From a virus: a stretch of DNA of 64,000 nucleotides. The number at the start of each line of letters is the position of its first letter. Positions within the stretch are counted from its first letter, which is position 1. This document shows positions 3 through 54,022 of this stretch, one piece after another. Where the stretch lies: positions 1 through 64,000 of IMG/VR virus record IMGVR_UViG_3300020810_001175. One strand, 5' to 3'. A model generated the notes under the pieces. The model searched no databases, had not been told where the DNA came from, and saw only the letters and a program-made list of their open reading frames with translations. The position numbers and the translations under genes are program-made.

Positions 3-2681
3 ATGAGAAATGCTACAGGCTTAAGAAACTGTACAGTTCAAGGACTATCAGGATCATTGGGATCAGCAAACAGTTATGGTACAAAACGTCCAACAGCAGG
101 TGCGTTTGTGTCATTGGATCCAGGTTATGGTCCAAATGATTACAGCGTATGGATTGCAAATCCAACAGTCGGCACAGCAACTTACACACCAACTGATGCT
201 ACATACGATCCAGCAACAGGTGTTACAGTATTAACAGTCGGCGCACACAACTGTCAACCAGGTGAATCTATCAGATTAACCACTGCAAGTTTAACATTCA
301 CTTGTGATTCAGATGGCAACGTGTCACAAATTGCTTATCCAAGAACAACAGATCCGGCGGCGGGTGCAGAGATCATGATTGATGCAGTCACTCCAACAAC
401 AATCACAATCAATGTTGGTGCAAGTCCAGGAGGACAACAATACGCACACACATTTGTGAGTGCTTTAGCAGATTCTGTACAACAGGAAACTGTGTGTAGA
501 ATTGGTGGTAGATCACCTTATATTCAAAACGTAACAACTTTTGGAACAGGTGCTGTAGGACAAAAAATTGACGGAGACTTACACGCAGGTGGTAATGACT
601 CTATGGTATCGAACGACTTTACACAGGTAATATCAGATGGTATTGGTGCTTGGATTACAAACTTAGGTAGAGCAGAACTTGTATCTGTGTTCTCATACTA
701 CGGACACATTGGATATCTAGCAGAAACAGGTGGAAAAATACGTGCTACAAACGGTAACTCATCTTATGGTGATTTTGGTTGTGTGGCAGAAGGTGTTGAT
801 CCGACGGAAGTTCCAGTTACTGGTACAGTTAACAATAGATCAACTGATGCAGTTGTAACCAGTGTATTCACTGATGGTGAACAAATTCTAGCATTAGAAT
901 ATGGCAACGCAGGTAGAGAATACTCAAACGCTACAATCACTATCACAGGTGATGGTTTCGGATTAAACGGAGTAGCGGCAACTTACAATACAGGTGGTGT
1001 TTACAAAATCAGATTGTTAGAAACTGTTGTAAATCCTACATCGAATTTAGGTGGTGCAGGATATGTTACAACAACAAACTCAGCACAAACAGGAACAACA
1101 ACTCAAATCACATTGGCGGCGGCTGATTCAGCGGCAAGTGGTGTGTATGTGGGTATGGCATTGTTTGTAACTGAAGGTAAAGGTGCTGGACAATATGGTT
1201 ACATTGATACATATTCTTCATCAAGCAAAATTGCTACAATTAAAAAATTCTCAGATGATTCTGCAGGTTGGGACACACTAGGTGGCAAAGCAGTTGAAAC
1301 AACTTTAGATTCAACTACCATCTACGAAATTACTCCAAGAGTTGTAATTGGTGCTCCACAAGGTGATGGTTCTACTGCGGCAAGGCAAGCAGTTGGAAGA
1401 GCAGTTGTTACAGGTGAACAAATTACATCAATTAAAATATTAGATTGTGGTGCTTCTTACACATCAGCACCAACAGTGACATTTGTAGATCCAAACAACA
1501 CAACAGATGCTCCAGTACAAGCATACATTGGCGATGGTGTGTTAGGTCAACCAACATTTGTGGCAAGAGGTCAAGATTATGTAACTGCTTCTGCGGCAAT
1601 CACAGAACAAGGTGTTCAAGCAACAGTATCAGCAATCACTAAAGCATCACCAGTAGTAGTAACAACTTCTGCCGCACACAACTTTAACACTCATGACAAA
1701 GTTAAATTTGATGGCATATTAGGTATGATAGAATTAAACACTGGTGTCTTTTATTATGTTAAAGTTCTAACAGTTGATACTTTTGAGTTATATGCTGATT
1801 ACGATTTAACAACTCCAATTGATTCTACAAACTACACCACATATCTAAGTGGTGGTACAGCAGAAACATTTGGTGGTTTTAGAGATGAATATCAATCAGG
1901 CAAATACATTGCTGTTGAAAATTTAACAGAAATTCCAAGAGCAGGTTCAAACATTGAGTTTGGTCATTTACCAGGACAATACTTTAAATTGGTTGCTGTT
2001 AATCAACAACTTGGAACACAAACTCCATTCACAGCATTGTTACAAGTTTCACCAGACATAAAAGTTTCGGAAGCACCTGATCACGGACAGTCAATTGAAA
2101 TGAGAATAAGATACTCACAAGTACGTTTAACAGGACACGACTTCTTAGATATCGGTACTGGTAACTTTGCAAATACAAACTATCCTGGATTACCATTAGT
2201 AAATCCAATTCCAGCAAATGAAACTGTTGAAGGCGGTGGAGGAAGAGTATTCTTTACATCAACTGACCAAGACGGTAACTTTAGAGTTGGTGACTTGTTC
2301 TCAGTAGAACAAGCAACTGGTATTGCATCATTGAATGCAGATGCATTTAATATTTCAGGACTACAAGAATTGCAGTTGGGTGATCTGGCATTAGGTGGAA
2401 CAAGTGCTTCTATTAATGAATTCTCAACTGATGGTACAATGGCGGCTAATTCGGATGCTATTGTTCCAACACAAAGAGCAATAAGAACTTACATCGCGTC
2501 ACAGATCGGTGGTGGTGCTAGTTCACTCAATGTTAACTTAATTACTGCTGGATTAGTGGTAATTACTGGTAACACAATAAGTACAAGTAACAATGTAGGA
2601 ATCAATTTCCAAAGCGTCACAAACTTCTCAAAAGGAGTTACTGGCGTACCGATTGCGATGAACTACTTAATACATAGTTAA
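3..2681 (+). CDS. Large virion structural protein (tail fibre/baseplate-associated); probably truncated at the window start
   Basis: Thr/Gly/Ser-rich beta-type composition; beta-helix-like segment (SPYIQNVTTFG...SMVSNDFTQV...GRAELVSVFSYY); FCCH-like module (ITKASPVVVTTSAAHNFNTHDKVKF); C-terminal GHDFLDIGTG...GGGRVFFTSTDQDGNFRVG as in T4-like aquatic phage structural proteins. Confidence 0.7.
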   Translation: MRNATGLRNCTVQGLSGSLGSANSYGTKRPTAGAFVSLDPGYGPNDYSVWIANPTVGTATYTPTDATYDPATGVTVLTVGAHNCQPGESIRLTTASLTFTCDSDGNVSQIAYPRTTDPAAGAEIMIDAVTPTTITINVGASPGGQQYAHTFVSALADSVQQETVCRIGGRSPYIQNVTTFGTGAVGQKIDGDLHAGGNDSMVSNDFTQVISDGIGAWITNLGRAELVSVFSYYGHIGYLAETGGKIRATNGNSSYGDFGCVAEGVDPTEVPVTGTVNNRSTDAVVTSVFTDGEQILALEYGNAGREYSNATITITGDGFGLNGVAATYNTGGVYKIRLLETVVNPTSNLGGAGYVTTTNSAQTGTTTQITLAAADSAASGVYVGMALFVTEGKGAGQYGYIDTYSSSSKIATIKKFSDDSAGWDTLGGKAVETTLDSTTIYEITPRVVIGAPQGDGSTAARQAVGRAVVTGEQITSIKILDCGASYTSAPTVTFVDPNNTTDAPVQAYIGDGVLGQPTFVARGQDYVTASAAITEQGVQATVSAITKASPVVVTTSAAHNFNTHDKVKFDGILGMIELNTGVFYYVKVLTVDTFELYADYDLTTPIDSTNYTTYLSGGTAETFGGFRDEYQSGKYIAVENLTEIPRAGSNIEFGHLPGQYFKLVAVNQQLGTQTPFTALLQVSPDIKVSEAPDHGQSIEMRIRYSQVRLTGHDFLDIGTGNFANTNYPGLPLVNPIPANETVEGGGGRVFFTSTDQDGNFRVGDLFSVEQATGIASLNADAFNISGLQELQLGDLALGGTSASINEFSTDGTMAANSDAIVPTQRAIRTYIASQIGGGASSLNVNLITAGLVVITGNTISTSNNVGINFQSVTNFSKGVTGVPIAMNYLIHS

Positions 2682-2694
2682 AGGAGAAGAAACA

Positions 2695-3015
2695 ATGGCT
2701 TCAGGAAGAATAGGAAAAGCAGATCTTTTAGCCGCGACAAATACGACTGTTTATACAACTCCTGTTGATACATTTACTGTGGCAACAGTGTCGTTTTGTA
2801 ACAGAGGTAACCAAGCCGTTACAGTAAGATTAGCGGTGGCAGACGCGGCAACTCCAGATAACTCAGAATATGTTGAATATGAAACAGAAATTTTGAGCCA
2901 TGGAGTTTTAGAAAGAACAGGTTTAGTACTGTCAGCAGGGCAATTATTGGTAGCACGTTCAAGTGGTGCTAACGTAAGTGCTGTTGTTAGCGGTATTGAA
3001 ACAAGTACAGCATAA
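2695..3015 (+). CDS. Small virion structural protein
   Basis: 106-aa ORF with AAGGAG RBS; TNTTVYT...VSFCNRG...VRLAV pattern typical of small fibre-associated proteins. Confidence 0.55.
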   Translation: MASGRIGKADLLAATNTTVYTTPVDTFTVATVSFCNRGNQAVTVRLAVADAATPDNSEYVEYETEILSHGVLERTGLVLSAGQLLVARSSGANVSAVVSGIETSTA

Positions 3016-3030
3016 TTTTAAGGTAAATTA

Positions 3031-3038
3031 TATAAATA
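3031..3038 (+). promoter_or_regulatory. T4-type late promoter (TATAAATA)
   Basis: Exact T4 gp55 late consensus in the intergenic gap before 3063. Confidence 0.7.
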
Positions 3039-3062
3039 GTACTAATAAAGGAAACATAGACA

Positions 3063-3395
3063 ATGGGAAGATACATATCAACAACTGGAACTGCTGGCGT
3101 AGTCACTAAACTAGTGAATACAACTTATCAAGCAGTTGTAAATGATAGAATCCTAGCAGATAGTAGCGTTGCTACTTTCACAATCACGTTGCCTCTAAAT
3201 GCTTCTTTGTTAATCAATGACACAATTCAAATCATTGATGCAACATCGAACTTTGGAACTAACAACGTAACTGTTGCTAGAAACGGTTCACTAATTCAAG
3301 GAGCGGCAGACGACTTAACGCTTGACTTAAATGGTGCAATCATGACTCTAATTTACACTGGTCCGACTTATGGTTGGATAGTTGGTGCGGTATAA
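3063..3395 (+). CDS. Baseplate/fibre connector, T4 gp9/gp10-like small domain
   Basis: ADSS..TFTITLP...DTIQIID...FGTNNVTVARNG..I.G...DLTLD..GA..TLIY....YGW motif. Confidence 0.55.
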   Translation: MGRYISTTGTAGVVTKLVNTTYQAVVNDRILADSSVATFTITLPLNASLLINDTIQIIDATSNFGTNNVTVARNGSLIQGAADDLTLDLNGAIMTLIYTGPTYGWIVGAV

Positions 3396-3437
3396 TATTT
3401 TTTATACAACACTTACAAACTTGGAGAAACGGAGATT

Positions 3438-4400
3438 ATGGCTAGTTTAAAATCACTACTCGGAACAAAATCAGATGCATTCGTATCGGTTGAAGAATCG
3501 AATTTAGAAAAAGGACGTATTTACGTTTATACACCTGGTACTAACTATTCAAGACTATGGTGCGGATTCTGTTTCCATCCTGAAGTATCAGGAACTGCTG
3601 TCGTAGAAATTTGGGGAGCAGGTGGATCAGGCGCAGAGATGTGCTGTTGTGGTTTCGGCTTACCTGGAAACGCAGGTGCTTACGTTAAAAAAACAATTTC
3701 AATGGCTCCAGGAGACTATGTTTGCGGATATATCGGACAATCATGTGGTAACTCAGATGATTTATGTTTTAGAGGTTGTTCAGAAGCAACTCAAGTAAGA
3801 TTTTGTATTTCAAACGCAGAAACTTGTGCGTGTGCAGAAGGTGGAAGAGGAGGAATAACATTCTGTTCTACTAACTCATCATTTTATTGTTGTTACAGAG
3901 CAAATGGTTTCTGTGTAACAAGAACAAACAACGACAACTGCGGAATTATTTGTAACCAATGTAGTGGCGCTTGGTGTGCCAGAGGTTACTGTGGTCAAGA
4001 AAACAAATGTGGAAGAATTTCTTGTGTATCAGCGTTCGGCTGTTACCCATCATGTATTTGTATGTTTAACCACCATATTCCAACTCCAGCAGGAATGGGT
4101 TCTAAAGAAGGAAGAATGATCATCTACACAAACGATGATTTCAACGGAACTCAAAACTGGTCAGGTATGGGACATTATCATCATTTAGCAAACCTAGGTT
4201 CAGGCAGATTCCCAACAGGCGGTGTGCCTTGGGGCAGTTGCTGGGACGGCGGTGTTGCTTGTGGATGTTATCAAAACGATGGCTGTATTCCTCAAATGCC
4301 AATCGGTACAGGTGGAAGAGGACCTAACCCATGTCCAGGTGTTAGAGATCACGCAATCAGAGGTGGACACGGAGGAGTGCGAATCAAATTCGTAAGTTAG
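3438..4400 (+). CDS. Cys-rich, Gly-rich protein, paralogue 1 (putative fibre tip/adhesin)
   Basis: About 31 Cys in 320 aa (hand count); EIWGAGGSG..MCCC..GLPGNAGAYVKKT and C-terminal RGGHGGVRIKF Gly-rich domain frame. Confidence 0.6.
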   Translation: MASLKSLLGTKSDAFVSVEESNLEKGRIYVYTPGTNYSRLWCGFCFHPEVSGTAVVEIWGAGGSGAEMCCCGFGLPGNAGAYVKKTISMAPGDYVCGYIGQSCGNSDDLCFRGCSEATQVRFCISNAETCACAEGGRGGITFCSTNSSFYCCYRANGFCVTRTNNDNCGIICNQCSGAWCARGYCGQENKCGRISCVSAFGCYPSCICMFNHHIPTPAGMGSKEGRMIIYTNDDFNGTQNWSGMGHYHHLANLGSGRFPTGGVPWGSCWDGGVACGCYQNDGCIPQMPIGTGGRGPNPCPGVRDHAIRGGHGGVRIKFVS

Positions 4401-4404
4401 TATT

Positions 4405-5421
4405 ATGGCAAGTTTAACTACATTATTACAATCCAAGTATGATTTTGCAGTAGGCAATGAAACAAACCTTGAAAAAGGTAGAATTTATCAATATTATCCA
4501 GGAACATCACGAGGTACAAACTTTAGATGTCACGTGTGTTTCGTAGCACCATCAGACGGTACAGCCACTATTGAAATTTGGGGAGCGGCAGGTTCAGGTG
4601 CAGAGATGTGCTGTTGCGGTGGAGGAATTCCAGGTAACCCAGGCGGTTATGCACGTAAAACAATTACTATGGCATCAGGCTGTTTCATTTGTGGAGTAGT
4701 AGGTGTGTCATGTGGTAACGGTGATGATTTATGTTTTAGAGGTTGTTCAGAACCAACTCAAGTGTGTTGGTTTGGTAACGGCGGTGGAGACGGATGTATC
4801 TGTGCTCAAGGTGGTATAGGTGGAAGAAGTTGGTGTTCAACTGGTTCTTCAATCTACTGCTGTGCAGTAGCATCAGGTTTCTGTTACACACAAGGTGGTT
4901 CAACTTATTGTGGGATCATTTGTAACTTTATGGATTCAGCAAGTTGTCCACAGTTTTGTGCTTATGCATATGGTGGAGATGTGAACTGTTACGGTGGATT
5001 TAGTTGTCATTACTTTAGAGGATGTCAACCTAACTGTAACTGTAGACAAGTTCCAATTATTAAATTCCCTCCAGGAATGATTTCAACGCTGGGTGGTGAG
5101 GTACATTACACAATGGACTCAGACTCAGGTAGATCTCAATGGTCTGGAATGGGCGGATGGATGAATGCATCTCATGGATTTAACCTAGCAACACGTAACC
5201 CTACAACAGGTGGACCATACACGGCTTGTTGGGAAGGTAACAGAAGTTGCGGTTGTTATGAACAACAAGGATGTAACACTTTCTTTCCAGCAGGAATTCC
5301 AGGACAAGGTCCAACACCATGTGATGGCGTAAGAGATCACGCACACAGAGGTGGATATGGTTTAATTAGAATCAAGTTTGTATCACCAACAGATGAATAT
5401 GAACTGGTGGCGCAACCGTAG
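4405..5421 (+). CDS. Cys-rich, Gly-rich protein, paralogue 2
   Basis: Aligns by eye with 3438: MASL, NLEKGRIY, WGAAGSGAEMCCC, DDLCFRGCSE, CGCY, PCDGVRDH..RGG.G.IRIKFV. Confidence 0.6.
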   Translation: MASLTTLLQSKYDFAVGNETNLEKGRIYQYYPGTSRGTNFRCHVCFVAPSDGTATIEIWGAAGSGAEMCCCGGGIPGNPGGYARKTITMASGCFICGVVGVSCGNGDDLCFRGCSEPTQVCWFGNGGGDGCICAQGGIGGRSWCSTGSSIYCCAVASGFCYTQGGSTYCGIICNFMDSASCPQFCAYAYGGDVNCYGGFSCHYFRGCQPNCNCRQVPIIKFPPGMISTLGGEVHYTMDSDSGRSQWSGMGGWMNASHGFNLATRNPTTGGPYTACWEGNRSCGCYEQQGCNTFFPAGIPGQGPTPCDGVRDHAHRGGYGLIRIKFVSPTDEYELVAQP

Positions 5422-5438
5422 AAGGAGTAAATAGTATT

Positions 5439-6413
5439 ATGGCAAGTTTAAAAGGATTATTAACTACTAGAAACCCAGCAGAGATGATTGAAAACAATCT
5501 CGAAACTGGATATATCTATTCGTACACACCTGGTACTAACTACTCTGTATTTTGTAATGGTATTTGTTGGACGGCTAATCAAGCAGGTACAGCCACTATA
5601 GAAGTTTGGGGTGCGGGTGGTTCAGGTGCTAGAATGTGTTGTTGTGGTGATGGTTTACCAGGCAATGCAGGTGCTTATGTTAAAAAAACTATCACAGTAG
5701 AAGCAGATGACACAATAACTGGTCAAACAGGAAACAGTTGTTATTCTCACGATTTATGTTTTTCAGGATGTTCACAATCCTCAGGAATATGTTACATCAC
5801 AGCCAACAACGGTAATGGATGTGTATGTTCAAGAGGTGGATTTGGTGGGAAATCTATGTGTACAACAGGATCTTCTTTATTCTGTTGTTACAGAGCTCAA
5901 GGTTTCTGTTACACAAAATGTAACAATGACAACTGCGGATTAGTATGTAACGTTTGTAACGGACACTGGTGTGCATTAGCATACGGTGGAGATACAAATA
6001 AAAACTGTTGCGGACAATTTTCATGTGCTAGTTTCTTTGGATGCTGTCCACATTGTAAATGTCGGTTCCAACAACACGTGGCTATGCCAGCAGGACTATT
6101 TGCTGAAGAAGGAGCATTAATCACTTTCCAAAAAGAATCTGATGGAACTCCAATGTCACAATGGTCAGGTAACCAATTATTTCAATGGTATGCGGCACTT
6201 AACTTGGCAACTAAAACACCAAGACAAGGTAACCCAGATGCACACTGTTGGAGATCAACAAGATCTTGCGGATGTTATGAGATGCAAGGTTGTAACAACT
6301 ATCTGCCTGTAGGAGCAGGAGGTTTATCTCCTAACCCATGTCCAGATGTTAGAGATCATGGAATTAGAGGTGGATTTGGTGGAATAAGAATCAAGTTTGT
6401 TCCGTCAAGTTAA
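5439..6413 (+). CDS. Cys-rich, Gly-rich protein, paralogue 3
   Basis: Same motif order (MASL, NLETG, WGAGGSGARMCCC, CGCY, PCPDVRDHGIRGGFGGIRIKFV); TAAATA at 5428-5433. Confidence 0.6.
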   Translation: MASLKGLLTTRNPAEMIENNLETGYIYSYTPGTNYSVFCNGICWTANQAGTATIEVWGAGGSGARMCCCGDGLPGNAGAYVKKTITVEADDTITGQTGNSCYSHDLCFSGCSQSSGICYITANNGNGCVCSRGGFGGKSMCTTGSSLFCCYRAQGFCYTKCNNDNCGLVCNVCNGHWCALAYGGDTNKNCCGQFSCASFFGCCPHCKCRFQQHVAMPAGLFAEEGALITFQKESDGTPMSQWSGNQLFQWYAALNLATKTPRQGNPDAHCWRSTRSCGCYEMQGCNNYLPVGAGGLSPNPCPDVRDHGIRGGFGGIRIKFVPSS

Positions 6414-6452
6414 TAAGGATTAGATAAATAAAAGTATAAGAGGATATAAAAA

Positions 6453-7109
6453 ATGGCAATTACAAAAGCATTTACAATAGCAATTCCAGATCAACCATAC
6501 GTTGATGATTTCAGCGGTGGTACAACTCAAGCCGCAACTTATAACGGCCCTAAATTTATTAAGTTTCAGTACCACAAAGACACAGGTGTTATTTCAAGTG
6601 TTATTGGAGATGGAGACACAGAAGATTTAATGAGCCAAAATGAATTGCCTTGTATGGAAGATCATTTGTCAGGATATATCAATGCTGAGGAAAATACTTT
6701 AGAAGCGGCTCTTATCACAAGATCATACGATGCAGGCGAAGTTCCTAATTACACAGAAGATTTAGGTACAACTGATGCTGACGGTAATGCAGAAACGTGG
6801 GAACACGAATGGAACGATGGTACTGGTTTACTTTCTCAAATCTACAAACTAGATACAATCAAATATCAAAGCAATGCAGTGGTTATGCCAGAATTTAGAA
6901 CACATGGATTAAGTAGAGAAGCGTTCATGGAAGGTGTAACAGGACAAATAGCAGGTTGTGATACTGAGTTAGCAAAAAGTGATGAGTACACAGATGAAGA
7001 AATTGCTTCAATCACAGCATACAAAACTTTTTTAGAATCAGTTTCTACAAAGTATGCTGACGTTGACCATTGGAAAATTAAATTTCCACAATCACCAAAC
7101 TTTAAGTAA
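6453..7109 (+). CDS. Putative tail fibre assembly/chaperone-like protein, paralogue 1
   Basis: Acidic; helical C-terminus ending HWKIKFPQSP, resembling the Tfa-type W..P..P end; directly follows the Cys-rich genes. Confidence 0.4.
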   Translation: MAITKAFTIAIPDQPYVDDFSGGTTQAATYNGPKFIKFQYHKDTGVISSVIGDGDTEDLMSQNELPCMEDHLSGYINAEENTLEAALITRSYDAGEVPNYTEDLGTTDADGNAETWEHEWNDGTGLLSQIYKLDTIKYQSNAVVMPEFRTHGLSREAFMEGVTGQIAGCDTELAKSDEYTDEEIASITAYKTFLESVSTKYADVDHWKIKFPQSPNFK

Positions 7110-7156
7110 TCAATTTTAAATCTGTTCTTTAGTTAAACAATTAAATAAGTTTAATT

Positions 7157-7825
7157 ATGAGCAACAGAGAAATATTCAATAGGTATCCATTCGATATGGA
7201 AATACCTGACCAACCTTATATCGACAACTTCAGCAAAGGATTAACACACCCTGCCATATACACGGGGGTAAGATTTTTAAAATTTAGAATTGAAAATGGT
7301 ACAGGACTTCTTAAAGAAGAAGTTGCTAATGGACATACTTTGGAAGAAATGAATTCAGTAATTGTTTACCCAGAAGAAAATCACGAAATTCATATCATAG
7401 ATGCCAAATTAAATCCTTGGGAAGCGGCATATTTGACCAATGCATATTCGCATGATCCCGTTCCTGTATATGAAGAAGATTTAGGCACTGTGGACAGTGA
7501 AGGTAATCCAGAAATTTGGAATTATAATTGGGGGCACGTACTTAATCAAATTTATTACAGTCATGAGTTAAGATATGTAAACGGTGAATATGTGAAACCG
7601 CCATTTAGATTACATCAACACACTCAAGAAGCATTCATAAAAAGTTTACTCGATCATCAAGAAATGGTTGAACGAGAGTTAAGTAGACCAGAAGGTGTTT
7701 ATACAGTTGACCAAAAAGCAAATTTACAAAAATATAAAGAAGACTTAGATGTTATTGAAACCAAGTATGTTGGAATACATCACTGGAAAATACCTTTTCC
7801 GGCATTACCATTAATCAAACCTTAA
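7157..7825 (+). CDS. Putative tail fibre assembly/chaperone-like protein, paralogue 2
   Basis: Shares IPDQPY.D.FS.G, EAA, Y.EDLGT.D..GN.E.W, L.QIY, FR.H and HWKI.FP with 6453. Confidence 0.4.
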   Translation: MSNREIFNRYPFDMEIPDQPYIDNFSKGLTHPAIYTGVRFLKFRIENGTGLLKEEVANGHTLEEMNSVIVYPEENHEIHIIDAKLNPWEAAYLTNAYSHDPVPVYEEDLGTVDSEGNPEIWNYNWGHVLNQIYYSHELRYVNGEYVKPPFRLHQHTQEAFIKSLLDHQEMVERELSRPEGVYTVDQKANLQKYKEDLDVIETKYVGIHHWKIPFPALPLIKP

Positions 7826-7873
7826 TCAATATTATAAACCTATCAACACTTCAATCTATAAGTAATCATATAC

Positions 7874-8827
7874 ATGAATACACAAACAAAAAGACCTAAG
7901 GCTTTTTTCTTAAATGGTGGTATGGGAAGAATAATTTCGGCCATTCCTGCTTTAGAAAAATATCAACAAGAATCGGGCGATGATAATTTTATAGTTGTGA
8001 TAGAAGGTATCTGTGATATTTTAAAAGGACATCCAACGTTAGATACAAAAACGTATGATATGTACCACAAGAATTTATTTCATACAAAACTGGTAAACAT
8101 GGATATTGTTAGTCCTGAACCTTATAGAGTTAATGATTATTTTAATCAAAAATGCAACATAGCCCAAGCATTTGATATTTTAATAAACAACAAAGGTATA
8201 AGAGATCTTCCAAAATCGACCTTAGTATTAAGCAAAGAAGAATTAATTGCTGGAAAAAAAGTAGTAGATGAAGTGAAAGAAAAATTAAAAAAAGAAAAAG
8301 TAGTTATTATACAGCCATTCGGTAGAGCAATAGAACAAATAGATGGATCATTTGTTGATAAGTCTAATAGAAGTTTAGAATTTTTTAATTTAAAAAATAT
8401 TATTAAAAAATTACAAGAAAAAGATTGGGCAGTAATTTTAATGAGCGAATTTGGAATAGATTTTAAAGATGCAGGATTTAAAGATGAAGTTGCTATGCCA
8501 GAAAAAGTAGAATTAAGACAGTGGGCGGCAATTATAAAATATGCTGATCATTTTTTAGGATGTGACTCATTGGGTCAACATCTTGCTTACAGTTTAGATA
8601 CACCAGCAAGTGTTGTGTTTGGTGCTACATATCCTGCAAATACATCATATCCACAATCAGAAAAATTTAATATTATTGATTTAGGACAAATGGACCGAGA
8701 ATATGATCCTATTAGAATCACATTCGATGAAAGAATAAGCAGAAAAAATGAAAGAATAATGTCAATGACTCCTGAAATAGAAGACTATGTAGTGGCGGCT
8801 GTTAATGGAGATCCAATAGAGGAATAA
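7874..8827 (+). CDS. GT-B glycosyltransferase, GT9/heptosyltransferase-like
   Basis: NGGMGRIISAIPA N-terminus; IIQPFG; LRQWAAIIKYADHFLGCDSLGQHLA (GT9 GxDSxxxHLA-like). Confidence 0.65.
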   Translation: MNTQTKRPKAFFLNGGMGRIISAIPALEKYQQESGDDNFIVVIEGICDILKGHPTLDTKTYDMYHKNLFHTKLVNMDIVSPEPYRVNDYFNQKCNIAQAFDILINNKGIRDLPKSTLVLSKEELIAGKKVVDEVKEKLKKEKVVIIQPFGRAIEQIDGSFVDKSNRSLEFFNLKNIIKKLQEKDWAVILMSEFGIDFKDAGFKDEVAMPEKVELRQWAAIIKYADHFLGCDSLGQHLAYSLDTPASVVFGATYPANTSYPQSEKFNIIDLGQMDREYDPIRITFDERISRKNERIMSMTPEIEDYVVAAVNGDPIEE

Positions 8828-8829
8828 CA

Positions 8830-10659
8830 ATGGACGATATAGAAAAATACAACAAAACAGGTTATATTGCGGCAATTGCCAGAGGACACAATGCAGGTGT
8901 ATGTTTACTAAAAGACGGAGAAGTTGTGTTTTCAATTGAAGAAGAAAGATTATCAAGAAGAAAATACGATGGCGGTCCATATGCTTCTATGGTTGAAATA
9001 TTAAAATACACCGACAAAATAGATTATCTAGTTGTTGCTCATACACAAAGTTTAAATGATAGATCAACAGGTAGAGTAGATTATTCAGGCGATGATGTTT
9101 ATACAGGTATTGCACGAAAACTTGGTCTAATTGATAGACATATCTATGAACAACCTCATCCACAAGTGATTGACTTATCACATATCCATCACAAACTTCA
9201 TGCCGCGTGTGCTTTTTATAGATCAGGATTTGACAAAGCAGTTGCAGTGATTGTGGACGGAGCAGGAACATTTATTCCAATAAAAAATAGTGTATCAGGT
9301 GAAACAACTGTGTTTGAAGTTGAAAGTATATTCAGTTGTGACTATCCAAACGACATATATGCTTTATACAAACATTATGGAACAGGCGAAGCCAGTCCAG
9401 GAGCATTTTACTCAGACTTTGCTTCAGATTCAATTGGTGAACCAGGTAAGACACACGAAGCATTATTCACTGACAGAGCAGGTATTGTAAAAGTTTATGA
9501 AGCAGTAACTCAATATTGCGGATTCACTGCCATTGAAGCAGGCAAAACTATGGGATTATTTCCTTATGGAAAACCCAATGATGTTATTCCACCATTATTC
9601 AAAAAAGAAGGTTACTATTCTTTATCGAATAGAAACTTAATTGTGCCAACATATCCAAACGCATCGATAGTTAACAGTCAACTGTATCCATTTATAGATG
9701 AAAATCCTGCTTCTGATCAAAAAGATGATTGGACACGTATGCAGAATAGAAGAGATTTAGCATATGCAGTACAAAAAGAAACACAAAAAGAATGTTTAGA
9801 TTTAATTTACAAAGCAGTACAGATGAGTGGTTGTAAGAATGTTGTATTTTCTGGAGGATATGGATTGAATTGTGTAGCCAACTATTATTATTTAGAAACT
9901 TTACGCAAAGATGGTATTAATTTTTATGCTGAGCCAGTATCAAACGATGCAGGTACGGCAATGGGAGCGGCAATGTTGTTCTATTACAGTCTAACACAGA
10001 CTAAAGAAAAGAAAGTTGCTGAACCTACACTGTACTTAGGTCCAAAAAGAACATACACAGATGAACAAATCAAACAGATTTGTGATAGACCTGGTGTAGA
10101 AGTAGTGGATGCTGACAATAAATCTGTTGTTGAGTTAATTGCAAATAAAAATATTGTGTCAATTTTTCAAGGACAATCAGAAAACGGTCCTAGAGCATTA
10201 GGTAACAGATCAATATTATATGATCCAAGAGATCCGGATGGTAAAGATCACGTTAATAGAGTAAAACATAGAGAATATTTCAGACCATTTGCTGGAACAA
10301 TACTACATGAATACGTGCATGAGTGGTTTGACTTGCGTGGAATGGAAGAAACTCCTCACATGATGTATGCTGTAAATTGTCAACCTGGCATAGAAGAAAA
10401 AATACCTAGTATAATACACGTGGATGGCACTTGCAGAATACAATCTGTAAAAAGAGAACAAAATCCACTGTACTATGATTTAATCAAAGAGTTTCATGCT
10501 CAAACAGAATGTCCAATCATATTCAATACCTCATTTAATTTAGGCGGAGAACCATTGGTTGAAACACTGGAAGATGCTGTAAGAACACTTCAGCACAGTG
10601 AAATTGAATACTTGTTCTTACCAGAGTATAAAAAATTAATAAAGGTAAAAAATGTCTAA
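8830..10659 (+). CDS. Carbamoyltransferase, NodU/CmcH/TobZ family
   Basis: EEERLSRRK, HHKLHAA, DGAG, EAGKTMGL, GGYGLNCVAN, NDAGTAMG, GPRALGNRS, KHREYFRPFA, HVDGTCRIQ, NTSFN. Confidence 0.92.
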   Translation: MDDIEKYNKTGYIAAIARGHNAGVCLLKDGEVVFSIEEERLSRRKYDGGPYASMVEILKYTDKIDYLVVAHTQSLNDRSTGRVDYSGDDVYTGIARKLGLIDRHIYEQPHPQVIDLSHIHHKLHAACAFYRSGFDKAVAVIVDGAGTFIPIKNSVSGETTVFEVESIFSCDYPNDIYALYKHYGTGEASPGAFYSDFASDSIGEPGKTHEALFTDRAGIVKVYEAVTQYCGFTAIEAGKTMGLFPYGKPNDVIPPLFKKEGYYSLSNRNLIVPTYPNASIVNSQLYPFIDENPASDQKDDWTRMQNRRDLAYAVQKETQKECLDLIYKAVQMSGCKNVVFSGGYGLNCVANYYYLETLRKDGINFYAEPVSNDAGTAMGAAMLFYYSLTQTKEKKVAEPTLYLGPKRTYTDEQIKQICDRPGVEVVDADNKSVVELIANKNIVSIFQGQSENGPRALGNRSILYDPRDPDGKDHVNRVKHREYFRPFAGTILHEYVHEWFDLRGMEETPHMMYAVNCQPGIEEKIPSIIHVDGTCRIQSVKREQNPLYYDLIKEFHAQTECPIIFNTSFNLGGEPLVETLEDAVRTLQHSEIEYLFLPEYKKLIKVKNV

Positions 10660-11635
10660 AAAAACAGCAATATTTTTAAATGGTGGTGCAGGTAGAATGG
10701 TTAGTTCTATACCAGCAGTAGAGAAATACCTAGAAGAAAATCCAGATAAAGATCCTATCCTAGTGTGTGAAGGTGGAACAGATGCTTTCAAAGGTCATCC
10801 TAAATTTCATTTCAGAGCATATGATCATTGGCACAAAAATTTGTTTCAAGATATGCTAAAAGATAGAGATTTAATTTCACCAGAACCATACAGAATATGG
10901 GAATACTACAATCAAAAGTGTAGTCTTGCTCAAGCATATGACATTGCTATCAATAATAAAGGAATTAGAGATTTACCTAAGCCAACCATACGATTAAGTA
11001 AAGAAGAGTTATTAATGGCAAGACAAATGATCACGGAAGTTAAGGAAAAGACAGGTAAAGATAAAATTATTGTATTTCAACCATTTGGCAGAGGTGCTCA
11101 CCCGGATCAAATCAGCGAAAAACAGAAGGAAGAAGGCAAACAACCTGACATCACTGATTCAACAGGAAGAAGTATAGAGTTAAAAAACATTTGGAACATT
11201 GTTAGAAAACTTGCTAAAAATTATGGCGTTATGGTGATGAGTGAATTTCCATTAGATTTTCAAAAACATATGTCTACTCCTATTGCTACTCCTATGAATA
11301 TACACCTAAGAATATGGATGGCTGTTATAAAACAAGCCAATCATTTTGTTGGTTGTGATTCTGTAGGTCAACACGTTGCTTATGCATTTGACAAAACAGC
11401 AACAGTGTTGGTTGGATCAACATACCCTATAAACACATCATTTCCAGATGCAGAAAATATAGACATTATTGATCTTGGCAAGGACGAAAGAGTGTATTCT
11501 CCCATCAGAATCACATCAGATGAAATGAGTGATAGACTGAATGAAGGCATTATGGCAATGGATGAACAAGCAGAAGAGCGTGTGATTAAATCTGTACAAA
11601 GAATGCTTAAACAGAGCAAAAATACCCAAAAATAA
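10652..11635 (+). CDS. GT-B glycosyltransferase, GT9-like; paralogue of 7874
   Basis: NGGAGRMVSSIPA; SPEPYR..EYYNQKC..AQAYDI.INNKGIRDLPK shared with 7874; FVGCDSVGQHVA. Confidence 0.65.
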   Translation: MSKKTAIFLNGGAGRMVSSIPAVEKYLEENPDKDPILVCEGGTDAFKGHPKFHFRAYDHWHKNLFQDMLKDRDLISPEPYRIWEYYNQKCSLAQAYDIAINNKGIRDLPKPTIRLSKEELLMARQMITEVKEKTGKDKIIVFQPFGRGAHPDQISEKQKEEGKQPDITDSTGRSIELKNIWNIVRKLAKNYGVMVMSEFPLDFQKHMSTPIATPMNIHLRIWMAVIKQANHFVGCDSVGQHVAYAFDKTATVLVGSTYPINTSFPDAENIDIIDLGKDERVYSPIRITSDEMSDRLNEGIMAMDEQAEERVIKSVQRMLKQSKNTQK

Positions 11636-11702
11636 GCAATTAGTAGTAATAATACAATAGTTCTAAATTAGGTAAATACACTATAATAAGGACTAATCGT
11701 AT

Positions 11703-12137
11703 ATGTTTGATGTATCAAGATTTTTTGGAAAAGGTGACAGAAACACGCTGTTGATGAAGAACGGCTTGAATTTCTCTCACAATGGACCGTATTCAGTTGT
11801 GGAAGATGGACTGGTTTTAGATCAATGGCACGTGAATACATTCACAACAGCAGAATACACAATGAGTGTAGATTACGACACAAACAATAAAGAAATTTTA
11901 AAAGTATTAGTATCAGCAAGTCCCAATCAAAGCAGTTTGTCAATATATGGTAGATCAAATTTAGGAAATAATTTGGTTAAAATATCTAGCGAAGTAAATG
12001 ATTCTTACGTAAGAATTAAAATAGACCCAGCAGATAAGAGCCCGACAGAAAAATATACAGGATCAAAAATTATATTTTCTGCAACATATTTTGCCACACA
12101 GAATGCATTGGTTGGAGGTTCACAGGTAACAAGTTAA
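11703..12137 (+). CDS. Virion structural protein (hypothetical)
   Basis: 144 aa; TAAATA at 11673-11678 and AAGGA RBS; LDQW....FTTAEY...E..K.LV pattern typical of T4-like fibre/baseplate domains. Confidence 0.4.
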   Translation: MFDVSRFFGKGDRNTLLMKNGLNFSHNGPYSVVEDGLVLDQWHVNTFTTAEYTMSVDYDTNNKEILKVLVSASPNQSSLSIYGRSNLGNNLVKISSEVNDSYVRIKIDPADKSPTEKYTGSKIIFSATYFATQNALVGGSQVTS

Positions 12138-12156
12138 TAAATATGGATGTAGCATA

Positions 12157-14019
12157 ATGGCAGTAGTTTTTAAACCTTTCGAAACAGATTACGGATACAA
12201 ATCACCAGGCTTTGTTGTAGACAAAGACGGTAACGTAACAGTTCGAACAATTACTAACACATACACGCCACCAGTTATTCCACCGGCACCAGATTTTAAT
12301 GTTAATGAAACTGCTGGAAATTTTTCATTTTTACAAGATGGCACTGCTGTTGCAGGTTCTAATCCAAACATAACTGTTGAAAGAGGTTCGACATACAGTT
12401 TTGTTCTCAATACCAACAGTATTGCTTTTAACATTTACAAACCAGATGTAGTAGATCCTAATGCATTAGGAATTCTTTACAATACAGGATTATCACACAC
12501 AAACACAGTAACAGGTTTGAATTTAACATCTGGCACAATATCATTCAGTCAAACATGGCAACAACAGCAATCAGGATTTAATAGAACTGCTCAGGTAGTT
12601 GTACCCGACACAACAGGTACACCGTTAGAAGGTAAAAAATTACCTGTGGTAATCAGTTTACACGACAGTGGCTTCACAGCAAGTGATGGTATCACAAATG
12701 TAAATTATATCTCAGACAAAATATTAATTGCACCTCAAGGTTATGGTAATGAATGGAATGTAGGTTATCAAACATCAAAAGCAGATGATATTGCTCTTAT
12801 TAATTCAATTATCAGTAGTTTCAGTTTGTATGATAATGTTGATACAAGAGAAATTACAATTATCGGTTATGGAAATGGTGCACAGTTGGCTTTACAATAT
12901 TCAAATCAAAGTCAAAATGCATCTGTAAAAAATATAATCACTTTCAACGGTTTATTAAACACTGACCAATACAGTCCAGTTGATCATTCTTTTTACAGTT
13001 ACAGTTTAGAAGATCAAAATCAAGATAATTCTACAATTATAAACTGGGTAGCAGTTACTCCATTAGGCAATAAAAATGTCATGATGTTTAATGGAAAAGA
13101 TGATCTAAGATTTTTATACCTAGGCGGAACTATTGATAATCAAGATTTATATAGTGCTCAAGATACTGTGTATGGTATGGCAAAAGCCAATAGTACACTT
13201 GACGCGAAATTATCTGAAGGCACATTACAAAGTGACGGATCAGAACTTTTTAGTTACAGCGACAATGCAATTCAAATGTTTGCATTTACAGGTGTTGCTA
13301 ATAATTTTACACAATATCAAAATGGTATCAGAGCAAGAATACAAACTTTAATTGCAACAGCATCATATTTAGATATTCCAGTTGCTACAACAGTAACAGG
13401 TGCTGAAGCACAAGGAAAACAAGCAGGAACATTAACATACACAGTTCCAGTGGATGCTCCAGATGATCTTTTTTATGGAGATACAGATGGTGTTCCATAT
13501 GGTTCGATCACTGTGGCACAACCAAGCATTATTGGTGTGGGTGTTTTCAGTTCAATTTTAGATACTGGAGATTTATTGGCTGAAGGTGTTAATGCCAACA
13601 TAAGATTACGACCATCAGGCACAGGAACAGTAATAATAAATCCAGAAACAACTGGTACAATCAATAATGTAAACATCAATGTGCAAAATTTAACCACGTC
13701 AGGCACTGTGCAGTTGACTCCGAATGCTGATATCACAATCAGTCCACAATCAAATGGAGCATTAACTATCAGACCAACGACGATAGGAGCAGTAGATAAT
13801 GTTAATATAGGGTCTGTGATACCTAGAAATGGTACCTTTTCAACAATCAATTCTGCTCAAGGAACGTTAAATAACACTACAATAGGATTAACAACTGCGG
13901 CGCAGGCGGCATTTACAACTGCAACTGTTGTAAATAACCCGGCTAACGCCAATGATGTAACTAAAAAGCAGTACGTCGACAACACAGCCACAGTGTTGGC
14001 GATTGCATTAGGAGTATAG
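12157..14019 (+). CDS. Virion/fibre protein with an inserted degenerate alpha/beta-hydrolase (PHB depolymerase/LpqC-like) domain
   Basis: NPNITVERGSTYSF ... GTLTYTVPVDAPDDLFY module split by a hydrolase-like segment (LPVVISLHDSG, APQG..WN, DDIALI, VDTREITIIGYGNGAQLA); fibre-type C-terminus (DVTKKQYVD..AIALG). Confidence 0.65.
   Translation: MAVVFKPFETDYGYKSPGFVVDKDGNVTVRTITNTYTPPVIPPAPDFNVNETAGNFSFLQDGTAVAGSNPNITVERGSTYSFVLNTNSIAFNIYKPDVVDPNALGILYNTGLSHTNTVTGLNLTSGTISFSQTWQQQQSGFNRTAQVVVPDTTGTPLEGKKLPVVISLHDSGFTASDGITNVNYISDKILIAPQGYGNEWNVGYQTSKADDIALINSIISSFSLYDNVDTREITIIGYGNGAQLALQYSNQSQNASVKNIITFNGLLNTDQYSPVDHSFYSYSLEDQNQDNSTIINWVAVTPLGNKNVMMFNGKDDLRFLYLGGTIDNQDLYSAQDTVYGMAKANSTLDAKLSEGTLQSDGSELFSYSDNAIQMFAFTGVANNFTQYQNGIRARIQTLIATASYLDIPVATTVTGAEAQGKQAGTLTYTVPVDAPDDLFYGDTDGVPYGSITVAQPSIIGVGVFSSILDTGDLLAEGVNANIRLRPSGTGTVIINPETTGTINNVNINVQNLTTSGTVQLTPNADITISPQSNGALTIRPTTIGAVDNVNIGSVIPRNGTFSTINSAQGTLNNTTIGLTTAAQAAFTTATVVNNPANANDVTKKQYVDNTATVLAIALGV
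12505..12516 (+). repeat. 12-bp direct repeat ACAGTAACAGGT, left copy
   Basis: Identical to 13390-13401; the two copies flank the hydrolase insert in frame (885 bp apart). Confidence 0.85.
13390..13401 (+). repeat. 12-bp direct repeat ACAGTAACAGGT, right copy
   Basis: Identical to 12505-12516. Confidence 0.85.
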
Positions 14020-14026
14020 AAACAGA

Positions 14027-17000
14027 ATGGCAAAAAAACGTATTAATACATACAAATTTACACCAGGAATTCCACAGAGTGGCAATCTTTTTCCAAATGC
14101 TTGGGCTCAGATCAACGCCAACTATGAGTGGTTGAAAGATGAATCCAGTGCATATATAGATGCTAAAATTGTTGAAGACACAGCGGCAAATTTATATCCT
14201 AACACTTCAACAAGATATCTTAACAACAAAGAATATGTCAAAGCAGAAGTGGCGGCGTGGGTAGCAGTACAAGTGGCAGGCAACATTGCACCATTTGCCG
14301 GTTACACAAAAACAGCAACAGAAATTAAAAACGATGTGGGCAACGTTATTGAAGCGGCATACCTAGACACAAGATACGGCGGAAATGAAAATATAAGAAA
14401 ACAATCACAAACATATTACATTGATGGAGTTTTACAATTAGCGGCGGCAGGTGAACCTGAAATCGCTTACATGGAAAAAGCAAGAGATATTTTCGATCTT
14501 TATATTTTCCCTGGTTTAGCATACAGTTCAATCAACACAGATGGATTAAGTCAAAACACATCAGGAACAAATGCAGAAGTAAATGGTAGAACAGGTTATC
14601 TAGCAAATATCAATGTTGTAATAAATGTTGTTGATAACGGTATTTTACAATTACCTGCTTTAGTAAGTTCTGCATATGTGTTTGCAAATTTTACTTACGA
14701 CAGTGCTCTTTGTCAAAGAGACATGGGGTACAACATCACTGGTATATTAACAGATTTAAGATATGGTGGTAATCAACAATCAAGATACAATGCTTCAACA
14801 TATTGGGTTGGCACAGTATCAGTATTAGACGGTGATAGACAACCAGAATTAGCAGTAAAAAACGAAATCAGAAACATTATAAACAATTATGTGATACCTG
14901 GACAAGCATTTAGTTCAAGACAGTCACCAGTTGTTACACAACAAACAATTTTACCTACTCCAGGTGAAGCAGGAGCCACTGCAAGAGTCACTACATTAGT
15001 TGGAATTATTACAGATGTAATTACAAATGGATTAGACAATTTACCTACTCAAGTAAACAACGGAATTTCAAGTGTAAAAATTCCTGAAAGAGTTGAACAG
15101 AATGAAATATTACTGATTACAAACACAACCACAAACACAGTACTATACACATTCAATGATCCTTCAAAAGGAGCAACAGTAACTTATCAAAGAGAATTTG
15201 CCGAAGACACATCAAACCCAACAGCGTTTGTTGATCCAGATTTTCCTAAAGCATATCATGGCAATGACACCATTACAACAATATTTTTAAATGCAGACAC
15301 ATCTGCAGATAGTAGTACAGACAACATTCAGATTTTTGTTGAAGAAGATGAGATAAGAACAAGACCATATGATTTTGGAACAGATGCAATTGAAAGATTA
15401 AGAGTAGCTCAACCAGAATCAATGCTTGATGCTGACTTTGAGTACGGATTACAGCCTACAAAATGGAGTGCGATTGCTACACAAAGAGGTTACCCATCGA
15501 TCTATGAAGTACCAGGTACAGATTTTGATATAGCAAGTGTGACATCAGATGCATCAGCAGGCACACAAGGTATAGGTTCATCGTTGATCACTGTGACAAC
15601 AATTGGACCACACGGTTTTGAAGCAGGACAACCTTTCACAATAACTGGATTTGACAATGCAGTACAAGGTGCAAGTAGAGCCGCAGGATCATTTGTGGTA
15701 AACACAGTGCCTGACACAAGATCATTTACATATTACGCAAAAGCAAAAGTTGGTCAAGCAAATCCAACAACAATTTCTACAACTTCCACTCAATTGAGAG
15801 AAGGTGACTTCTACACAGGAGCATCAATTGGCTTCCCTTCATTCAGTGTTGCTTCAAACGGTTCATCAGGAAACTTTGTTACCAGTTTAGGAGTGTTAAG
15901 TGGTTCAACCATACTTCCATACACAGGTGTACAACCAGAATTAGGAGCACCGTTAACAGGAACAGGAATTCAACAAGGTACACAAATCACAGCAGTGAAT
16001 GGTTCAGGTGGCGCATTGGCGGCTCCAACTGTTACAGGTGATTACTCAGCAGGTGCAACAGAAATTACAGTGGCAGATTCTTCAGGTATTATTCAAAACT
16101 CTGTGATTGATAGAGGAGATGGATTTGCTGTAACAATTATCAACGTGGCAGGAAACAGTTTAACATTGAGTGCTCCTTTGAATCAAGCATTAATAGGAGA
16201 TGTAACACAGTACACAAATTTACCAGGATTAAATGTTGCTCCACAAGGACAGTTAGCAAGATTTGATATTTTTAGAGTTGGCGGTGCATACTCAGTAAGT
16301 TTAGTAACAAACGGACAAGTTGGTACAGGTCAAGATTACGAAGTAGGTGATGCTATTGTTGTTTCAGGAACAGAATTAGGCGGAGCAACTCCGGCCAATG
16401 ATGCAACAATCACTGTTGAATCAGTCAGCACAGGTGGTGAAATTACTGCCGCATCTATTTCAGGTACAGCATTTACAGGAACAGGTACAGCATCAGCAGT
16501 CACTCCGGTATTCCAAGGAGGTGTTGGTACAGGTGCTCAGATAAATTTAACAAAAAACAATCAAACCTATTCAGTAGCATTAAACAATCCACAGTACACT
16601 AATAAGAGTGTAGATGTATTCCCAGGCGCTGTTGGTGTAGGAGCAGTGTTTGATGTCACAGTTGATGCAGGAGTATATACTGCTGTAACAATTAATAATG
16701 CAGGTGGATCATATATTCAAAATGACGTAATAAGAATTAATGGATCGGTGTTTGGCGGAAATAATGACAATAATTTAGACATAAGAGTTACTGGTGTTGG
16801 CGGATCAGGAGAAATTCAAACAATATCTTGGGCTGGCACGGCGCCTGCTCAGACGGCAACATACAATGCCGCAACATACACAACAGCAAGTGCTGGCGGT
16901 CTAACAGCAGTATTCAACGTAACAAGAACAGGAACAACTTATTCAGCAACAGTATCAGGTATAGGTAATGGATATTCAGCAACTGACACTTTAACTTTTG

Positions 17001-21068: not shown

Positions 21069-21449
21069 CTATTCGTTATTTTGTATTTTTTGAGAATCAC
21101 CAGGAATGATTCTGTAATTATCTTCAGGATCGTCAGCAGTGCTAACTTCAGTTATACTGCCTCTTTCACTTAACAATTGAACTTGATGTGGCATCAAAGG
21201 AAGGTTCCTCCAAGTTTCACCTTCTTTTAATTCTTTTGTGAACAGTGTTGCTGTTTTTGTATCTATGTAACTGAGTAAAAATTTACCTTCGTTTACAAAC
21301 CAAGTCTCGTCTTTGGTTTTATGAAAATGCATTGAAAATTTTGCACCTCTTTTTTCAAATACCATGATTTTACCACAGTACTTGTCGTTGGACGCCCATA
21401 TTAATTCGTAACCCCAACCTTTTTTAACTTGTCCTTCTTTATTAATCAT
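21069..21449 (-). CDS. Cupin, sugar isomerase-like
   Basis: KKGWGYELIW, SMHFHKTKDETW, PHQ, EVST cupin motifs. Confidence 0.7.
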   Translation of the reverse strand: MINKEGQVKKGWGYELIWASNDKYCGKIMVFEKRGAKFSMHFHKTKDETWFVNEGKFLLSYIDTKTATLFTKELKEGETWRNLPLMPHQVQLLSERGSITEVSTADDPEDNYRIIPGDSQKIQNNE

Positions 21450-24521: not shown

Positions 24522-24537
24522 GTAATTAATTATGTGA

Positions 24538-49989: not shown

Positions 49990-49995
49990 AATGTT

Positions 49996-50973: not shown

Positions 50974-50974
50974 A

Positions 50975-52242: not shown

Positions 52243-52274
52243 ATACCTCCAATAAATATTTCAAAAGGATTCCA

Positions 52275-54021: not shown

Positions 54022-54022
54022 T

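Follow-up and report, generated by a model that had tools for sequence, protein, structure and literature searches.

The window analyzed here (64,000 nt; positions 1 to 64,000 of IMG/VR virus record IMGVR_UViG_3300020810_001175) carries a cassette of eight genes, which encode three cysteine-rich proteins (C1, C2, and C3), two probable fibre-assembly chaperones (T1 and T2), two proteins of predicted GT9 glycosyltransferase fold (G1 and G2), and a predicted TobZ/NodU-type O-carbamoyltransferase (CT). Comparison across phages supports the conclusion that these genes are one conserved, co-inherited module, and it is well supported that fibre tips, chaperones, and sugar-tailoring enzymes constitute a single functional module. 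The cassette is best explained as a fibre-tip module that is conserved among marine myoviruses, moves laterally, and is found on differing phage backbones. As the target decorated by the enzymes we predict the phage's own virion fibres, at a probability of roughly 0.45. The corresponding genes of large marine cyanophages, designated "lipopolysaccharide (LPS) genes," have been unexplained since 2005–2010; they now prove to be linked solely to a particular class of Cys-rich receptor-binding tip, in non-cyanophages as well.

Composition and co-inheritance of the module

A first-pass annotation of the window had reported eight contiguous, co-oriented genes set among fibre genes. All eight open reading frames were found, on the + strand (Table 1), downstream of a tail-fibre PHROG protein encoded at 3–2681 and upstream of genes for structural proteins of 620 and 2345 amino acids (aa); the 2-nt gap between G1 and CT and the 8-nt overlap between CT and G2 were likewise measured as that annotation gave them. 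Two small genes upstream (s1 and s2) and one downstream (d1) are members of the same conserved block. The s1 protein has 45–47% identity to PSSM2_302 of P-SSM2 and SXBG_00228 of S-CAM1 and matches PHROG tail-fibre families, and the s2 protein (37% identity to SXBG_00227 of S-CAM1) matches 14 PHROG families, mostly of tail proteins. A hydrophobic segment resembling a membrane span was found in none of the eight cassette proteins.

To define the extent of co-inheritance, loci were picked from IMG/VR on G (the 80 best among at least 574 stretches encoding a G relative), and those with at least 9 kb on both sides of the G homologue were taken as full loci (n = 47). C, T, CT, s1, and s2 are all present in 47/47 full loci, across identities of 55–91% to the nearest reference G, and d1 is present in 36; the co-occurrence that the first-pass annotation had proposed to look for across phages is therefore found. 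Copy number varies among the full loci, with three copies of C in 41 and two in 6, one copy of T in 32 and two in 15, and one copy of G in 35 and two in 12. CT is missing from only one of the 80 G-picked loci, which stops 1.1 kb past G, and every one of the ten G-picked loci without C is cut off on the relevant side. When IMG/VR loci were picked on C, G was present in 58 of 73; among the remaining 15, ten end no more than 1.6 kb past the last C and five have a C gene on its own, in two cases on contigs (100 and 122 kb) with G elsewhere and in three on contigs that are 3–7% complete.

Isolates that encode G (>37% identity) are S-CAM1, S-CAM3, Sf-FS3, S-SSM6a, S-SSM7, P-SSM5, and P-SSM2, together with four single-cell contigs, and a Cys-rich query retrieves the same isolates. 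In every isolate inspected, the genes are arranged as fibre, s1, s2, C (in n copies), T, G, and CT, followed by heptose genes. A search of 185,579 species genomes matched 11 loci, all on contigs of metagenome-assembled genomes (MAGs) of scattered taxonomy and each with the phage module. These eleven MAG contigs (L175–L185), which were binned to Methanobacteriota, Neomarinimicrobiota, Actinomycetota, Flavobacteriales, and others, are probably wrongly binned phage DNA.

The gene order is that of a string of cyanomyovirus "LPS genes," T4-GC 296-308 (PSSM2_301–313 in P-SSM2, SSSM7_113–133 in S-SSM7, SXBG_00216–229 in S-CAM1, and 96–111 in Sf-FS3), to which the G proteins of the window are 43–54% and CT 48–62% identical. 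The window differs from this string in the addition of a second G after CT and of a second T, in its heptose genes, which lie 10 kb away and are inverted, and in its backbone, which is not that of a cyanomyovirus. The published label of the cyanophage genes leaves their role unassigned (PMC3037559), and the accessible text of the open (non-subscription) literature on cyanophage carbamoyltransferases and heptose contains no description of the module or of a role in the virion. Sullivan et al. (2010; PMC3037559) were undecided as to whether the "LPS genes" are functional or "stuffer DNA," and accessory genes are known to concentrate in the region (PMC7029224); both leave room for mere co-location, by which auxiliary or "stuffer" genes would have gathered by chance in a hypervariable host-recognition region with no tie to fibres. 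We consider this highly improbable, given the co-occurrence in 47/47 full loci over such a range of G identities, and given that the linkage spans differing phage backbones and outlasts inversion of the fibre block, which in 10 of the 47 lies inverted downstream of G-CT.

The source record comprises 84 kb of a large, uncultured, marine T4-like phage (CheckV completeness 24%), and genes for gp15-like, sheath, terminase, gp32, and UvsX proteins are present in the window. The large terminase (38221–39804) has its nearest match in the Pseudomonas jumbo phage PA5oct (53%), not in a cyanophage; by this sequence comparison, the window phage is probably a jumbo phage rather than a cyanomyovirus. A near-identity search of the cassette DNA against the phage collection gave no match.

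Table 1. Genes of the fibre-tip module and of the heptose cluster in the window (positions in the 64,000-nt stretch).
Gene	Position	Strand	Description
s1	2695–3015	+	106 aa, small, conserved; first gene of the module
s2	3063–3395	+	110 aa, small, conserved; like the C-terminal part of tail/tail-spike proteins
C1	3438–4400	+	Cys-rich protein of predicted TNF-like/glycine-rich-domain tip fold; phrog_4205 match; paralogue of the modelled C3
C2	4405–5421	+	Cys-rich tip-protein paralogue; phrog_4205 match
C3	5439–6413	+	Cys-rich tip-protein paralogue; structure modelled
T1	6453–7109	+	Probable fibre-assembly chaperone; phrog_9740 match
T2	7157–7825	+	Paralogue of T1
G1	7874–8827	+	Divergent glycosyltransferase-like protein, modelled GT9 fold; phrog_8954
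CT	8830–10659	+	Predicted TobZ/NodU-type O-carbamoyltransferase
G2	10652–11635	+	Second paralogue of predicted GT9 fold; phrog_8954, E 3e-134
d1	11703–12137	+	144 aa, conserved, usually after CT or G2; weak Cadherin-like match only
cupin protein	21069–21449	-	T4-GC 307 type; labelled "cysteine dioxygenase" in cyanophages
hldD-like	21442–22263	-	NAD-dependent sugar epimerase; PF01370, E 7e-37
2-oxoglutarate (2OG)-Fe(II) oxygenase-like	22254–22850	-	PF13640, 22.6 bits, under the cut-off
hldE	22840–24090	-	Bifunctional heptose kinase/adenylyltransferase; PfkB and CTP_transf_like domains
NUDIX hydrolase	24087–24620	-	PF00293; adjoins hldE

Properties of the encoded proteins

Cys accounts for 31 of 320 residues in C1 (9.7%), 31 of 338 in C2 (9.2%), and 32 of 324 in C3 (9.9%), compared with 0–2.2% in neighbouring proteins, and Gly for 14–17%; pairwise identities are 48–52%, C1 being 52% identical to both C2 and C3, as befits the three paralogues of ~10% Cys that had been described. 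The AlphaFold2 (AF2) model of C3 (predicted local distance difference test [pLDDT] 76.6, predicted template modelling score [pTM] 0.77, residues 1–22 of low confidence) matches the fibre structures of the cyanophage Pam3, 7ypx at Z 15.5 (root-mean-square deviation 5.2 Å, 204 residues aligned) and 7yfw at Z 14.6 (3.3 Å, 195). Other matches are a tail-tip chain of mycobacteriophage Bxb1 (Z 12.3) and the glycine-rich domains of ALK/LTK (Z 7.4–9.7), while the next unrelated chain reaches only Z 4.7; Foldseek is concordant. According to this model, the C proteins have a tumour necrosis factor (TNF)-like/glycine-rich receptor-binding-tip fold, which supports the earlier placing of them at a receptor-binding tip.

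[quoted passage not shown] They differ from the Pam3 protein in composition (9–10% Cys and 14–17% Gly, compared with 39% Gly in the Pam3 domain), in being three paralogues, and in that a long N-terminal helical shaft is absent from the model; furthermore, tailoring enzymes are undescribed for Pam3. Across 37 C homologues 18 Cys are invariant, and conserved Cys fill many positions, such as those of an invariant CCCG. The only glycine motif conserved in the family is WGAGGSG (W57, G58, and G61 invariant), as opposed to the long GGGGxGG type expected of Pam3-like tips.

In metagenomes, 363 relatives of the C family were retrieved, and not one of them has a Pfam domain or a name. In a midpoint-rooted FastTree phylogeny of 103 C proteins, many cluster by gene position across lineages, and the triplication is therefore taken to be old. 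A tblastn search with C3 against the phage collection gave no match; a query with an S-SSM7 paralogue did retrieve the family. Two loci (L139, 9140–15282, and L140) have a lone Cys-rich paralogue behind s1-like and s2-like genes and before fibre genes that encode 1414 and 1709 aa, ~25 kb from a full module on the same contig.

T1 and T2 had been described as two paralogous Tfa-like proteins. The paralogy stands (37% identity), and the Tfa-likeness comes down, for the window's own proteins, to a sub-threshold match of T1 to Caudo_TAP (PF02413; 15.4 bits, cut-off 22.1), with no Pfam match for T2. Within the wider family, 8 of 42 members match Phage_tail_APC (PF16778; best E 1.3e-11), and the Atlas features of T1 score 0.91 against Phage_tail_APC clusters; a profile of the T family gave weak, unconvincing matches only against PDB sequences. 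These sequence comparisons suggest that the family is probably tail-assembly-chaperone-like. T diverges far faster than its neighbours: relative to the nearest relatives (L030), identity is ~60% for T1 and ~48% for T2, and 86–90% for C3 and G1.

G1 and G2 are 49% identical to each other. G1 scores above the 22-bit cut-off of the GT9 family PF01075 (29.4 bits) and G2 below it (19.2 bits), and 37 of 77 members of the G family match this domain at E ≤ 0.01; a search of PDB sequences with G1 alone gave nothing useful. The AF2 model of G1 (pLDDT 95.9) has Z 23.6 to 3tov, 21.7 to WaaF (1psw), 20.1 to TibC, and 19.4–19.9 to WaaC, compared with no more than 11.5 to other GT-B proteins. The model indicates a GT9 fold for G1, which is predicted for its paralogue G2 as well, in agreement with the two paralogous GT9-like enzymes of the first-pass annotation; it fails to distinguish heptosyltransferases of the LPS type from those of the protein type. 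The donor motif D-S-x-G-x-H of G aligns to the motif of WaaF and WaaC (GT9 D-(S/T)-G-x-x-H), with D231 and H236 conserved in 77/77 family members and S232 in 76/77, and E82, P83, Y84, D162, and R166 are also invariant or nearly so. ADP-heptose is the predicted donor, from genomic linkage to hldE, hldD, and gmhA.

Like the autotransporter heptosyltransferases TibC and AAH, G has the GT9 fold by modelling and, by inference, shares with them the linkage of an adhesin gene to a heptosyltransferase gene. Residues 1–316 of G1 align to residues 88–392 of TibC only, so that the N-terminal part of TibC is missing from G, as is the catalytic Asp. In TibC and AAH, the N-terminal extension contributes an iron site and dodecamer contacts.

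CT matches Carbam_trans_C (PF16861; E 1.3e-59, 201 bits) and Carbam_trans_N (PF02543; E 5.1e-25, 89 bits), and has a Kae1-like N-domain and a YrdC-like C-domain, both above threshold. It aligns to carbamoyltransferases of solved structure and to GdmN, the novobiocin enzyme, and TobZ, with E values from 1e-43 to 1e-54 overall and from 1e-43 to 1e-46 for the three named enzymes, and has 62% identity to SSSM7_121 of S-SSM7. The motifs HHKLH, VDGAG, and GPRALGNRS are present, which we take to be functional motifs of the carbamoyltransferase class. Judged from its sequence, CT is an intact, full-length carbamoyltransferase of the TobZ/NodU type that had been placed between the GT9 pair, with a sugar hydroxyl as putative acceptor.

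A phage TobZ-type enzyme has been shown to make 5-carbamoyloxymethylcytosine (PMC8670742), which raises the alternative of DNA hypermodification, by which CT would carbamoylate 5-hydroxymethylcytosine (5hmC) and G would glycosylate the modified base. For the cassette this is extremely improbable. The class of 5hmC enzymes is marked by adjacent thymidylate-synthase homologues and deaminases, and the carbamoyltransferases of unmodified contigs adjoin glycosyltransferases (PMC8670742); there is no match to Thymidylat_synt (PF00303) in the 84-kb record, itself incomplete, and the neighbours of the cassette are fibre genes with late-type boxes. An article on glycosylated 5-hydroxycytosine in viral DNA (PMC13326640) touches on neither heptose transfer nor carbamoylation nor cyanophages.

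Between G and CT, 16 of the 47 full loci encode one or two proteins of ~300 aa that start with "RLFxFGCSYT" (for example L059, 11068–11931; L077, 10949–12783; and L071, L082, and L090); these have an SGNH/GDSL-like look, but matched no Pfam family. One lineage encodes a haloacid dehalogenase (HAD)-family phosphatase just downstream of CT (L092, 12900–13571, - strand), which may be of the GmhB type.

Late-type boxes and heptose genes

On the + strand between 2400 and 12200, TAAATA occurs in six copies (3033, 5428, 6425, 7142, 11673, and 12138), all of them intergenic, which precede s2, C3, T1, T2, d1, and the gene for the 620-aa protein. Across the window, TAARTA is depleted (65 observed vs. 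138.7 expected), as is ATAAATA (12 observed vs. 28.4 expected), and 10 of the 12 ATAAATA copies lie no more than 51 nt upstream of + strand gene starts, including that of the sheath gene; one of the copies is at 6424 (T1). The exact T4 box, TATAAATA, has a single occurrence, at 3031, 31 nt upstream of s2. TAAATA is a real signal. Among the late-type boxes that the first-pass annotation had listed, the TAAATA copies at ~3031 (3033), 5428, 6425, and 7142 hold up, and the TAAGTA copy at 7859 finds no support, because the other five + strand copies of TAAGTA in the region all sit inside genes; G1 is therefore without a box of its own. A scan for intrinsic terminators over 2400–14200 gave 7 sites vs. 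6.2 expected, none in a spacer, and sigma-70-like sites over the same interval are at chance level. Because G1 lacks its own box and the spacers contain no terminator-like site, T2-G1-CT-G2 probably form one late transcription unit.

The heptose genes hldE and hldD had been placed ~10 kb downstream of the cassette; the distance is 9.8 kb, and hldE and the hldD-like gene are on the opposite strand (Table 1). The hldE gene corresponds to the split genes 309 and 310 of P-SSM2, and the hldD-like epimerase has 40% identity to PSSM2_313. The cupin protein has 35–38% identity to SSSM7_131 and PSSM2_312, with weak cupin and sugar-isomerase matches. In P-SSM2, S-SSM7, and Sf-FS3, too, a 2OG oxygenase gene stands at this position, and a NUDIX homologue is found no more than 10 kb from G in 9 of the 47 full loci. 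In the cyanophages P-SSM2, S-CAM1, S-SSM7, and Sf-FS3, heptose genes follow CT directly or two genes later (S-SSM7). On three of five long contigs, hldE is located elsewhere.

The predicted target of the enzymes

We propose that the block would be transcribed late from the TAAATA-type boxes, with T2-G1-CT-G2 as a single unit, and that T would fold or trimerise C in the manner of Pam3 gp25 acting on gp24. In the cytoplasm, G would move phage-made heptose (generated by hldE, hldD, and the cupin protein) onto fibre protein, for which the acceptor would most probably be the C tip or an adjacent fibre. CT would then O-carbamoylate the heptose, amounting to the inner-core carbamoyl-heptose chemistry of Pseudomonas LPS, carried in this case by the virion. 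The numerous conserved Cys would be more likely to staple a packed lattice of the glycine type, through disulfides or metal, than to bear sugar.

The carbamoylated heptose predicted as the product follows from the combination of two GT9-fold proteins with a carbamoyltransferase, a likeness to WaaC, WaaF, and WapO (PA5005) of Pseudomonas (PMC8005017); the genes of the window differ from that set in being phage-borne, soluble in their products, situated amid late fibre genes, and characterized by Arg at the position of the catalytic base. The phage's own fibres are favoured as the target because of the exclusive linkage, the late-type boxes, the soluble proteins, and the confinement of the family to phages, and because distant G homologues are also adjacent to fibre genes and the LPS of a known host strain contains neither heptose nor 3-deoxy-D-manno-oct-2-ulosonic acid (Kdo). 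The strain is the marine Synechococcus WH8102, the host of Sf-FS3 (PMC4515613), which thus has no classical GT9 acceptor.

Glycosylation of virions by virus-encoded enzymes occurs in mycobacteriophages, chloroviruses, and mimivirus fibrils. Common to these systems and the window are virus-borne glycosyltransferases, sometimes with a sugar pathway, beside structural genes; the glycosyltransferase families and sugars of the window differ, and glycosylation is here predicted from genes.

Several observations weigh against decoration of the fibres. In WaaC, Asp13 in the N-terminal G-D...P-A-L loop is the presumed catalytic base; the equivalent position in the G family (R19 in G1, assigned by identical spacing to the P-A-L motif together with a weak hidden Markov model alignment) is Arg in 71 of 77 members and Lys in 3, with neither Asp nor Glu in any member, and G may therefore act by other means or be non-catalytic. 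The distant G homologues of Aeromonas phage HJ05 and Vibrio phage K479 (26% identity) adjoin tail-fibre genes without a Cys-rich neighbour and without CT, which ties the G family to fibres generally, not to cysteine. In only 8 of the 47 full loci is hldE found no more than 10 kb from G, and it is missing from one 161-kb module carrier that CheckV rates as 100% complete. Contigs from the RNA libraries of four metatranscriptome runs (salt marsh, aquatic, and marine) cover nearly the whole cassette at 95–100% identity, which denotes presence in those libraries, may be DNA-derived, and gives no transcript ends or levels. Moreover, the same pattern of co-occurrence would be expected if an adhesin gene were linked to the gene of an enzyme modifying the receptor of that adhesin. 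The published cyanomyovirus proteomes are those of S-SM1, S-PM2, and Syn9, none of which is a module carrier (PMC3037559).

The first-pass view of a self-contained cassette fed by hldE and hldD accordingly holds in part: it fits the cyanophages with heptose genes after CT, and does not fit the complete contig without hldE; gmhA (SIS_2) has no match in the 84-kb record, itself 24% complete.

The replacement of Asp by a basic residue in 74 of 77 relatives also suits an alternative in which G is not a transferase, but a GT9-fold assembly factor or a binder of sugar nucleotides or glycans that accompanies the fibres, with CT acting on another substrate. Plant NADH dehydrogenase-like (NDH) complexes hold non-enzymatic subunits of the GT9 fold, which match the G1 model at Z 18.8–18.9, and some fibre-adjacent G homologues have neither a sugar pathway nor CT. 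This alternative is nevertheless quite unlikely in light of the invariance or near-invariance of D231, S232, H236, E82, P83, Y84, D162, and R166, the linkage to CT in 79/80 loci, and the linkage to heptose-synthesis genes in many lineages. The Arg-for-Asp change is, furthermore, the sole pointer to S-linkage of the sugar to Cys, a reading that we do not adopt. In it, the phage-only, Arg-bearing branch of GT9 would be a new kind of protein glycosyltransferase that places heptose on a nucleophile able to do without a base (such as a Cys thiolate) or an anionic group of the tips; CT would carbamoylate this heptose to give an S-linked or otherwise unprecedented mark on the receptor-binding surface, and the three paralogues, long since separated, would make up a mixed trimer. 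We regard this as very unlikely.

Somewhat unlikely, yet with more to be said for it, is modification of the host surface, whereby G and CT would put carbamoyl-heptose on an envelope glycan (the LPS core or the receptor of the tip). The receptor would thereby be masked, which would prevent superinfection or keep progeny from being lost on cell debris, and the enzyme and adhesin genes would stay together because both are tuned to one receptor. To our knowledge, every characterised GT9 enzyme bar the autotransporter heptosyltransferases acts on the LPS core, and phage T5 offers a precedent, in that its receptor-blocking gene adjoins the gene for its receptor-binding protein. The basic N-terminal domains of G (pI [isoelectric point] 8.4–8.8) are also consistent with this alternative. 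In Pseudomonas, two heptosyltransferases and the carbamoyltransferase WapO serve the HepII-HepI core, a trio that G1-CT-G2 mirrors (PMC8005017), and genes for LPS or O-chain are the published reading (PMC3037559; PMC7029224). Against this alternative, both heptose and Kdo are absent from the LPS of WH8102, the Sf-FS3 host (PMC4515613). Late-type boxes and probable co-transcription with a chaperone are ill-suited to the remodelling of a cell near lysis, and membrane spans are absent from the proteins of the cassette. The Arg-for-Asp change separates G from the LPS enzymes, and the G family occurs in no cellular genome context among the 185,579 species genomes, all 11 loci being phage modules.

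If the virion fibres are the target, adhesins coated with carbamoyl-heptose would represent virion glycosylation in abundant ocean phages and a new type of acceptor for the GT9 family, and would have implications for the setting of host range in phages of Prochlorococcus and Synechococcus. Cultured carriers of the module exist (S-SSM7, P-SSM2, S-CAM1, S-CAM3, and Sf-FS3), which makes the question testable.

Elsewhere in the window, a second, bigger cluster of glycan genes (45015–57423) encodes four GT25 proteins, a GT8-like protein, two methyltransferases, a radical S-adenosylmethionine (SAM)/SPASM enzyme, an epimerase, and a cupin protein. Genes for a TnsA-like endonuclease and an FkbM-type methyltransferase are situated amid structural genes at 35094–36067.

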